Part shown: positions 42,935-44,412 of the stretch, piece after piece
How positions within the stretch are numbered: the first letter of the stretch is position 1
Layout of the letters: every line of letters starts with the position of its first letter
DNA from: Mobula hypostoma
Lineage: Eukaryota
DNA: 64,000 nt
Direction: 5' to 3'
Assembly: GCF_963921235.1 (NCBI RefSeq)
Contig: NC_086108.1
Span: 4,774,001 to 4,838,000, forward strand
Position numbers and translations under genes: made by a program
Notes under the pieces: model-generated
What the model was told of the DNA's origin: nothing
The model's database searches: none
Seen by the model: only the letters and a program-made list of their open reading frames with translations

Positions 42935-44412
42935 CAGTTGAAGTCATTAGTTTACATACACACTAGCCAAATACATTTAAACTCAGTTTTTCACAATTCC
43001 TGACATTTAATCCTAGAAAACATTCCCTGTCTTAGGTCAGTTAGGATCACTACTTTATTTTAAGAATGTGAAATGTCAGAATAGTAGCAAAGAGAATGAT
43101 TTATTACAGTTTTTATTTCTTTCATCACTTTCCCAGTGGGTCAGAAGTTTATATACGCTTTGTTAGTATTTGGTAGCACTGCCTTTAAATTGTTTAACTT
43201 GGTTCAAACATTTTGGGTAGCCTTCCACAAGCTCTCACAGTAAGTTGCTGGAATTTAGTTCCATTCCTCCAGACAGAACTGGTGTAACTGAGTCAGGTTT
43301 GTAGGCCTCGTTGCTCGCACACGCTTTTTCAGTTCTGCCCACAAATTTTCTATCAGATTGAGGTCAGAAAATGATGTCAAGTCTGGTTCATCCTTGGGAG
43401 CAATTTCCAAACACCTGAAGGTACCATGTTCATCTGTACAACTAATAGTACGCAAGTATAAACACCATGGGACCATGCAGCCGTCGTACCGCTCAGGAAG
43501 GAGATGCATTCTGTCTCCTAGAGATGAACGTACTTTGGCGTGAAAAGTGCAAATCAATCCCAGAGCAACAGCAAAGGACCTTGCGAAGATGCTGGAGGAA
43601 ACAGGTAGACAAGTATCTATATCCACAGTAAAACGAGTTCTATATCGACATGACCTGAAAGGCTGCTCAGCAAGGAAGAAGCCACTGCTCCAGAACCACC
43701 ATAAAAAAGCCAGACTACAGTTTGCAAGTGCACATGGGGACAAAGATCTTACTTTTTGGAGAAATGTCCTCTGGTCTGATGAAACAAAAATTGAACTGTT
43801 TGGCCATCATGACCATTGTTATGTTTGGAGGAAAAGGGTGAGGCTTGCAAGCCGAAGAACACCATCCCAACCGTGAAGCATGGGGGTGGCAGCATCATGT
43901 TGTGGGGGTGCTTTGCTGCAGGAGGGACTGATGCACTTCACAAAATAGATGGCATCATGAGGAAGGAAAATGATGTGGATATTCTGAAACAACATCTCAA
44001 GACATCAGCCAGGAAGTTAAAGCTCAGTCACAAATGGGTCTTCCAAATGGACAATATCCCCAAGCATACCTCCAAACTAGTGGCAAAATTGCTTAAGGAC
44101 AACAAAGTCAAGGTATTGGAGTGGCCATCACACAGCCCTGACCTCAATCCAATAGAAAATTTGTGGGCAGAACTGCAAAAGCGTGTGTGAGCAAGGAGGC
44201 TTCTGACCCACTAGGAAAGCGATGAAAGAAATAAAAGCTGAAATAAATCATTCTCTCTACTATTATTCTGACATTTCACATTCTTAGAATAAAGTAGTGA
44301 TCCTAACTGACCTAAGACAGGGAATGTTTTCTCGGATTAAAAGTCAGGAATTGTGAAAAACTGAGTTTAAATGTATTTGGCTAAGGTGTATGTAAACTTC
44401 TGACTTCAACTG
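42935..44412 (+). mobile_element. Sleeping Beauty-family Tc1 transposon, rearranged and non-autonomous
   Basis: TA|CAGTTGAAGTC...GGCTAAGGTGTATGTAAACTTCTGACTTCAACTG|TA; transposase KSGSSLGAISK.LKVP.SSVQ.IVRKYKHHGT...VLWSDETKIELFG...FQMDN.PKHTSK...[11 protein letters not shown] closely matches SB as recalled; stops at 43541 and 44188, frameshift near 43835. Confidence 0.92.

Follow-up and report, generated by a model that had tools for sequence, protein, structure and literature searches.

The element described here is closest to the SB/salmonid Tss1 subfamily of transposons (Tc1 DD34E, IR/DR group), represented by the Sleeping Beauty (SB) structures 5CR4 and 5UNK and by the natural sequences L001 and L002, and shares 94-95% DNA identity with L001 over the ORF and the right IR. 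The half-DR of the SB left end has been described as an enhancer which is not essential (PMC7827188, PMC5224488), doubling of the left TIR was reported to give 2-3-fold more transposition (PMC8151067), a preference for two copies of one end has also been described for SB (PMC4505599), and the accessible text of the salmon study presents left/right consensus ends only (PMC6362248). No report of a natural right/right SB family or of SB in Mobula was found in the open literature, a scope that leaves out subscription journals, Repbase and Dfam. Right/right SB constructs are said to have moved poorly in a primary study. The initial annotation had made the same statement, pointing to the enhancer at the left end; the reviews bear this out in part, placing the enhancer there but describing it as not essential. 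The present element shares with SB/Tss1 the IR/DR ends, the TA duplication and the family length of 1639 bp, and differs in its ray host and in its 5' part, where an inverted 434-nt right end stands in for the left IR, a half-DR-like site, the bulk of the UTR and 19 codons with the ATG.

The Drosophila mariner sublineages Dromar7, 11, 28 and 36 (PMC4161770) are similar to the form proposed here in carrying an inverted copy of the other end, in their unusually long TIRs and in amplification from a single founder. However, all seven swaps reported in that source are replacements of the 3' end by the 5' end in MITE sublineages, whereas here the 3' end replaces the 5' end in a full-length IR/DR element. 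The Goblin MITE from Aedes aegypti (PMC3814204) likewise has right subterminal sequence on both sides and microhomology at the junction, and a gap-repair template-switch model was put forward for it, but its TIRs are given as 54 bp long, while the arms considered here comprise 434 bp and include coding sequence. The engineered pT3 vectors (PMC8151067) also possess symmetric ends derived from one natural end, although it was the left end, with its enhancer, whose doubling brought the gain in the laboratory, while the natural family doubled the right one. Maize Mu killer (PMC3440606) is comparable as a partial inverted duplication of transposase and terminal repeat within host transcript read-through, but it is one individual locus proposed to silence by way of siRNAs, whereas the present element is known from its DNA sequence alone.

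The window, i.e. the whole stretch of Mobula hypostoma DNA analysed, is 64,000 nucleotides long. The element occupies 1478 bp in it (42935-44412) and is bounded by two TAs. A natural SB-type element, L001:1613-3251 (full-length, 1639 bp, with an intact 340-codon ORF), was used as the reference, and positions in it are hereafter prefixed with c. L001 is 99.3% identical to L002, its protein is 99% identical to P0007, the cluster of which includes salmonid records, and the likeness between its left and right IRs is no more than 69-70%; the initial annotation had remarked that the two SB IR/DRs differ. The metagenome scan for transposase relatives confirmed three of the 130 candidates (L001, L002 and L003), all with the canonical left end, while none of two candidates in viral contigs and none of 62 in genome contigs were confirmed, and the element had no match in the plasmid collection. 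The exact 24-nt junction pattern occurred in neither the metagenome nor the genome contigs, which is uninformative because both sets are microbial and little ray DNA is expected in them. Next to the SB element in L001 lies the end of a different element, whose 65-bp inverted repeats (L001:44-108 and 1546-1610) are 95% identical. The features of the locus are listed below.

42933-42934, no strand: left TA of the target-site duplication
42935-43161, minus strand: left end, a complete right-type IR/DR with the outer DR from 42935 (two private changes) and the inner DR at about 43133-43161, without a half-DR-like site
43163-43367, minus strand: inverted copy of the final ~68 transposase codons and the stop, which lengthens the terminal repeat to 433 nt
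43365-43379, plus strand: 15-nt 5'UTR remnant (c261-275), 15/15 identical in L001, L002 and L003
43378-44200, plus strand: SB-clade transposase codons 20-293 without an in-frame start (c445-1268, 94.3%)
44200-44201, plus strand: junction J3, a deletion of ~159 nt (c1269-1427)
44200-44412, plus strand: right IR with half of the inner DR only and an intact outer DR (95.3% to c1427-1639)
44413-44414, no strand: right TA of the target-site duplication
44415-44700, minus strand: host LINE interrupted by the element and continuing left of 42934
34291-46311, minus strand: first coding intron of SIPA1L3, containing the element (exons 47781-46312 and 34290-34156)

When the element was aligned to the left IR, the right IR and the ORF of L001, the earlier description of its structure turned out to be correct wherever checked. 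The segment 42935-43367 is indeed the reverse complement of the 3' end, including the right IR and the C-terminal coding piece (c1206-1639, 91.5% over 434 nt); the short piece at 43365-43379, said to resemble the SB 5'UTR, is identical to c261-275; the forward transposase follows it at 43378-44200, and the jump of the ORF near 44200 leads into a second right IR, corresponding to c1427-1639. When the first 228 nt of the left end are compared with the canonical IRs, 209/228 positions agree with the right IR and 150/221 with the left IR. The inverted arms match each other over 216 nt at 94% and over 63 nt at 92% (E values of 9e-90 and 3e-20), which is far above chance, and the terminal repeat has 433 nt here instead of the 434 nt of the family owing to a 1-nt loss at 43232. 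The junction between the inverted arm and the UTR piece (J1) has the 3-nt microhomology CAG, the one between the UTR piece and the ORF (J2) has the 2-nt microhomology CA, and J3, at which the ORF loses its 47 terminal codons and the right inner DR its core half, has a microhomology of ~1 nt.

Relative to the canonical element, the copy has lost the left IR together with its half-DR-like site, the greater part of the UTR and codons 1-19 with the ATG. The site in the canonical left IR, located at c153, matches the DR core in 10 of 13 positions and may represent the half-DR described in PMC5224488 and PMC7827188; the DR-core scan revealed no c153-like site in the right IR or in the left end of the window element, where the best extra site matches in 8/13 positions. 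The coding pieces match P0007 at 86-89%, and their PDB matches are Sleeping Beauty structures only (5CR4 with E values of 1e-65 and 6e-28, 5UNK with 2e-18). There is a stop at 43541-43543 and a 1-nt frameshift near 43831, and the catalytic D, D and E are all retained. The SB-like transposase, the IR/DR ends and the TA duplication, that is, features rather than a tree, place the element in the SB clade, with both DRs at the left end and the outer DR plus half of the inner DR at the right end of this copy. It is neither a canonical member of the clade, as both ends are of the right type, nor an autonomous one, as no in-frame ATG precedes codon 20. Translation from the two ATGs inside the 15-nt piece was also considered and rejected as being out of frame. 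Autointegration was rejected too: J1-J3 involve neither termini nor TA and have the CAG, CA and ~1-nt microhomologies instead.

In canonical SB (L001:1613-1900 against the reverse-complemented 3' end), the likeness of the left and right ends extends past the inner DR into the last ORF codons, hinting that the SB left end could be an old copy of the right end. The same likeness may explain the published statement that the 3' TIR overlaps the ORF, and similar long-TIR SB forms may exist in bony fish, the SB TIRs given by Jia et al. reaching 415 bp.

Once the element and one TA are taken out, the flanking sequence aligns gaplessly across the site to the LINE copy at 57590-57898 (67% over 309 nt), so that the host repeat is rejoined in the way originally proposed. 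The LINE copy matching the flanks has an ORF with endonuclease and RT domains, and we take the interrupted LINE to be CR1-like, in keeping with the name given in the initial annotation. The termini of the element are precise and the TA is duplicated within a contiguous LINE; the LINE loose ends at 44427/44430 in the run contigs run across the empty site. Along 490 residues, the SIPA1L3 exon at 47781-46312 matches a Mobula hypostoma SIPA1L3 protein with 100% identity.

The rest of the window contains no further SB copy; three other Tc1 remnants there are 67-73% alike. These are decayed full-length elements of other families (~7105-8667, 16259-17845 and 31958-33582) with 42-58% protein identity to P0007 and TIRs of ~180-220 bp at 76-83%, the one at 16259-17845 having an extra 79-nt inverted match upstream (~16056-16134). 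Also present are a young LINE copy at 56458-60175 with a 679-aa endonuclease-RT frame, in a position upstream of SIPA1L3 or intronic, and a G/A-only tandem array at 26-1414 (41-bp unit, ~34 copies, 90%). Directly left of the host LINE there is a minus-strand frame (42375-42731) which has no match in Pfam and presumably resembles the end of a hAT/ZBED-type transposase.

Among 24 public runs, none contained half of the query words, and four were compared with positions 43150-44700: X22, X21 and X3, all from one sample of organism C, and X24 from organism A as a control. The contigs of organism C cover the LINE flank, while X24 has no cover beyond 44449, and organism C shares the letter of the window where X24 and L001 differ, e.g. 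at 43608, 43610, 43728 and 43839. Organism C would thus appear to be a relative carrying the same subfamily. The ray-lineage transposase changes T96R, K97Q and T136S (43608, 43610 and 43728) are common to the window and organism C and absent from X24 and L001; T96R and K97Q presumably lie within the RED subdomain.

X3 comprises 28.7 million contig letters and therefore represents mainly repeats, and its records mentioned here are among the 8 listed out of 193. Record 26 of X3 aligns to 43348-43426 with two other letters, no gap and a depth of 33.3. When strings assembled from L001 were matched with the window along these 79 letters, the canonical ORF start gave 22 differences, J2 alone 15 and J1 and J2 together three, and the two differences of record 26 therefore mean that it carries both junctions. 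J2 passes the 31-letter bridging rule with 32 and 47 letters, whereas only 20 letters lie to the left of J1, so the call of J1 in this record is based on the mismatch count. An assembly artefact was rejected as the source of J1 and J2, both being present in the contigs of another organism.

The depth of the junction bin relative to the ORF is 1.10, 1.06 and 0.89 in the three organism C runs and 0.59 in X24, where 0.62 is expected without the junction, and the arm/ORF ratio is 2.01, 2.38 and 1.96 in organism C versus 0.49 in X24. At the record level, X3 has a depth of 36.9 for the ORF (record 28), 79.8 for the arm (record 25) and 57.8 for the IR (record 30); the IR bins, at only 1.13 times the ORF mean (the record-level ratio being 1.57), count against the prevalence of the right/right form. 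Summed contig depth is not a copy number and all these contigs come from one sample, but if the junction depth does count right/right copies, they make up ~90% of the ORF-bearing copies, and an arm depth of ~70 is expected, which lies between the observed 57.8 and 79.8. A Poisson bound, which is an estimate and not a count, gives at least ~220 junction copies on the assumption that X3 is a plain shotgun of a 2.8-4 Gb genome. In X24, 213 loose ends at 43378 continue into the normal ORF start; there were none at this position among those listed for organism C, which is a weak negative. Right ends are found beside other flanks in organism C (records 16 and 31), in contigs too short to link a junction with a flank. 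The presence of the same J1 and J2 breakpoints in many copies is indicated for organism C only. Taken together, the data suggest that organism C probably carries the right/right form, with its 434-bp terminal repeats, in multiple copies and as the dominant version of the family, and we infer the same dominance for the Mobula hypostoma genome itself.

It was left open in the initial annotation whether the element had transposed as a right/right unit or had been rearranged after insertion. The left junctions at family-level depth in the organism C contigs favour the former and argue against the latter, and J1 and J2 are not confined to this locus, which had been named as a sign of local rearrangement. 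The jump at 44200 fares differently: it is present in the element, but it does not belong to the family form, since no listed record bridges it and the loose ends at 44200, seven in X22 and ten in X21, carry on into the normal sequence. The lack of a bridging record for J3 among those listed for organism C and X24 is a weak negative, and J3 is probably private damage to this copy that happened after insertion. The unit that moved possessed all four DRs in full and arms of 434 bp. All four DRs are described as necessary for SB transposition (PMC7827188), so the copy, with half of an inner DR gone, should now be immobile.

The copy differs from the ORF contig of X3 at 24/700 letters (~3.4% from the consensus), and its two arms differ from each other at 19/276 shared positions (6.9%), i.e. 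twice as much, as expected for arms identical at insertion. The X3 contigs show neither the stop at 43541 nor the single-nucleotide losses near 43831 and at 43232. At one site, located at 43354-43355 and 44149-44150 in the two arms, neither arm agrees with the other or with L001, a pattern that fits the decay of an ancestral CpG on opposite strands.

The copy is thus very probably one decayed, once-mobile insertion of an amplified right/right non-autonomous SB family, which entered rays horizontally, was born in a single template-switch event, was moved in trans and became the commonest form. According to this scheme, a salmonid-type SB element would have entered the ray lineage by horizontal transfer, and in one copy, once, DNA synthesis would have changed template twice at short microhomologies. 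The nascent strand would have copied 15 nt of the UTR, having skipped c276-446 at CA, and, at CAG, would have switched to the right end by folding back and copied 434 nt of it up to the terminus, with the 27 nt common to both outer ends permitting the return to the left flank. The expected product is 1639 bp long and non-autonomous and has perfect 434-bp repeats, four right-type sites and no half-DR enhancer. Intact left/right relatives would have provided the transposase to move it in trans by cut-and-paste into TA sites, and the product would have become the commonest form of the family, after which the insertion in the window would have decayed, acquiring a stop and a frameshift and shedding 159 nt together with half of an inner DR.

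We infer the template-switch origin from the 3-nt and 2-nt microhomologies, and mobilisation in trans is likely to have taken place, as the family form has neither a promoter region nor a start codon and needed transposase from intact relatives. Relative to L001, c1-446 are lost and 434 + 12 = 446 nt are gained, resulting in 1639 bp, equal to the parent; relative to L002, 445 nt are lost and 446 gained. The chance of an exact length match is ~0.001 and of a match within 2 nt ~0.004, given even and independent breakpoints and with the match noticed after the fact. Such a match would fit a replication-coupled switch returning in register, or chance.

An unlikely alternative is an inverted dimer formed by the head-to-head insertion of two normal copies, with a later collapse of the palindromic centre and movement of the composite via its two outer right ends. 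Central deletion in long palindromes is well established, and the dimer would produce right/right ends without a template switch and account for the leftover UTR piece, with the arm divergence fitting both origins alike. It would, however, require two deletions and leave the exact length match (446 out, 446 in relative to L001) unaccounted for.

Somewhat harder to accept is a naturally symmetric, autonomous ray family with a right/right parent retaining the ATG (J1 without J2), from which the J2 form would be a deletion derivative. Such a parent could be suspected from the SB TIRs of 44-415 bp with the 3' TIR overlapping the ORF that are given in the accessible text of Jia et al. (PMC9777934), but the canonical left/right likeness reaching the last codons can account for this overlap. 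J1 and J2 occur together on the listed junction contig at ~90% of the ORF depth, and J1 deletes the left IR beside the UTR, which is said to aid transposase transcription (PMC7827188).

It is very improbable that a normal left/right copy was inserted here and its left end was replaced later by gap repair or gene conversion. The left arm does have 43148-43304, missing from the right arm, so at least one rearrangement (J3) is later than the duplication, and the outer 27 nt, identical in the left and right IRs, would permit conversion sparing the target-site duplication. Nevertheless, the same J1 and J2 are found at ORF-level depth in organism C, where no listed piece spans this locus, and independent events would not hit the same two microhomologies again. 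Least probable of all is passive spread of the junction form by segmental duplication or inside another repeat, the mode of spread not being revealed by depth alone, given the precise CAG termini and TA duplication within a contiguous LINE at this locus and the right ends beside differing flanks in organism C (records 16 and 31).

As for the route into rays postulated in the preferred reading, the SIPA1L3 exon is only 49% identical to sturgeon SIPA1L3 (244/502), yet the element differs from L001 at just 39/699 bases. This comparison points to horizontal transfer of an SB-type element into the ray lineage. The accessible text of Jia et al. (PMC9777934) records the SB clade for 107 ray-finned fish, a single mollusc and no cartilaginous fish, and an expansion of Tc1/mariner elements in skates and rays is reported in a preprint (bioRxiv 10.1101/2024.05.27.594570), the available part of which gives no element structure.

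The predicted fold of the element has 270-280 long-range pairs versus 150 for L001, which, combined with the intronic position, would amount to a potential for hairpin silencing only. The element is a dead copy to which we ascribe no function in the host. Tentatively, and with more doubt than confidence, one may imagine that an enhancer-less right/right derivative of exact wild-type length beat its left/right parent after the fish-to-ray transfer because perfect 434-bp arms offset the lost half-DR, possibly aided by T96R and K97Q, and that intronic copies then gave long hairpin RNA against the transposase C-terminus, helping to silence the family in the manner of Mu killer. If true, this would be a natural counter-example to the left end being the better SB end and would offer a vector design to test.

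SB serves clinically as a gene vector, and what it needs of its ends has been learned from cell assays; an amplified natural family with a doubled right end tests the left-end rule in the germ line, as well as long perfect arms as a substitute for the enhancer. End replacement itself is already known, and the surprise lies in which way the swap went and in how well its product did: end-replacement derivatives are extended from the 5'-for-3' swaps of insect mariners to an IR/DR element in which the swap runs the other way, and the exact conservation of length is a clue to the origin of end swaps, which was termed elusive in PMC4161770.
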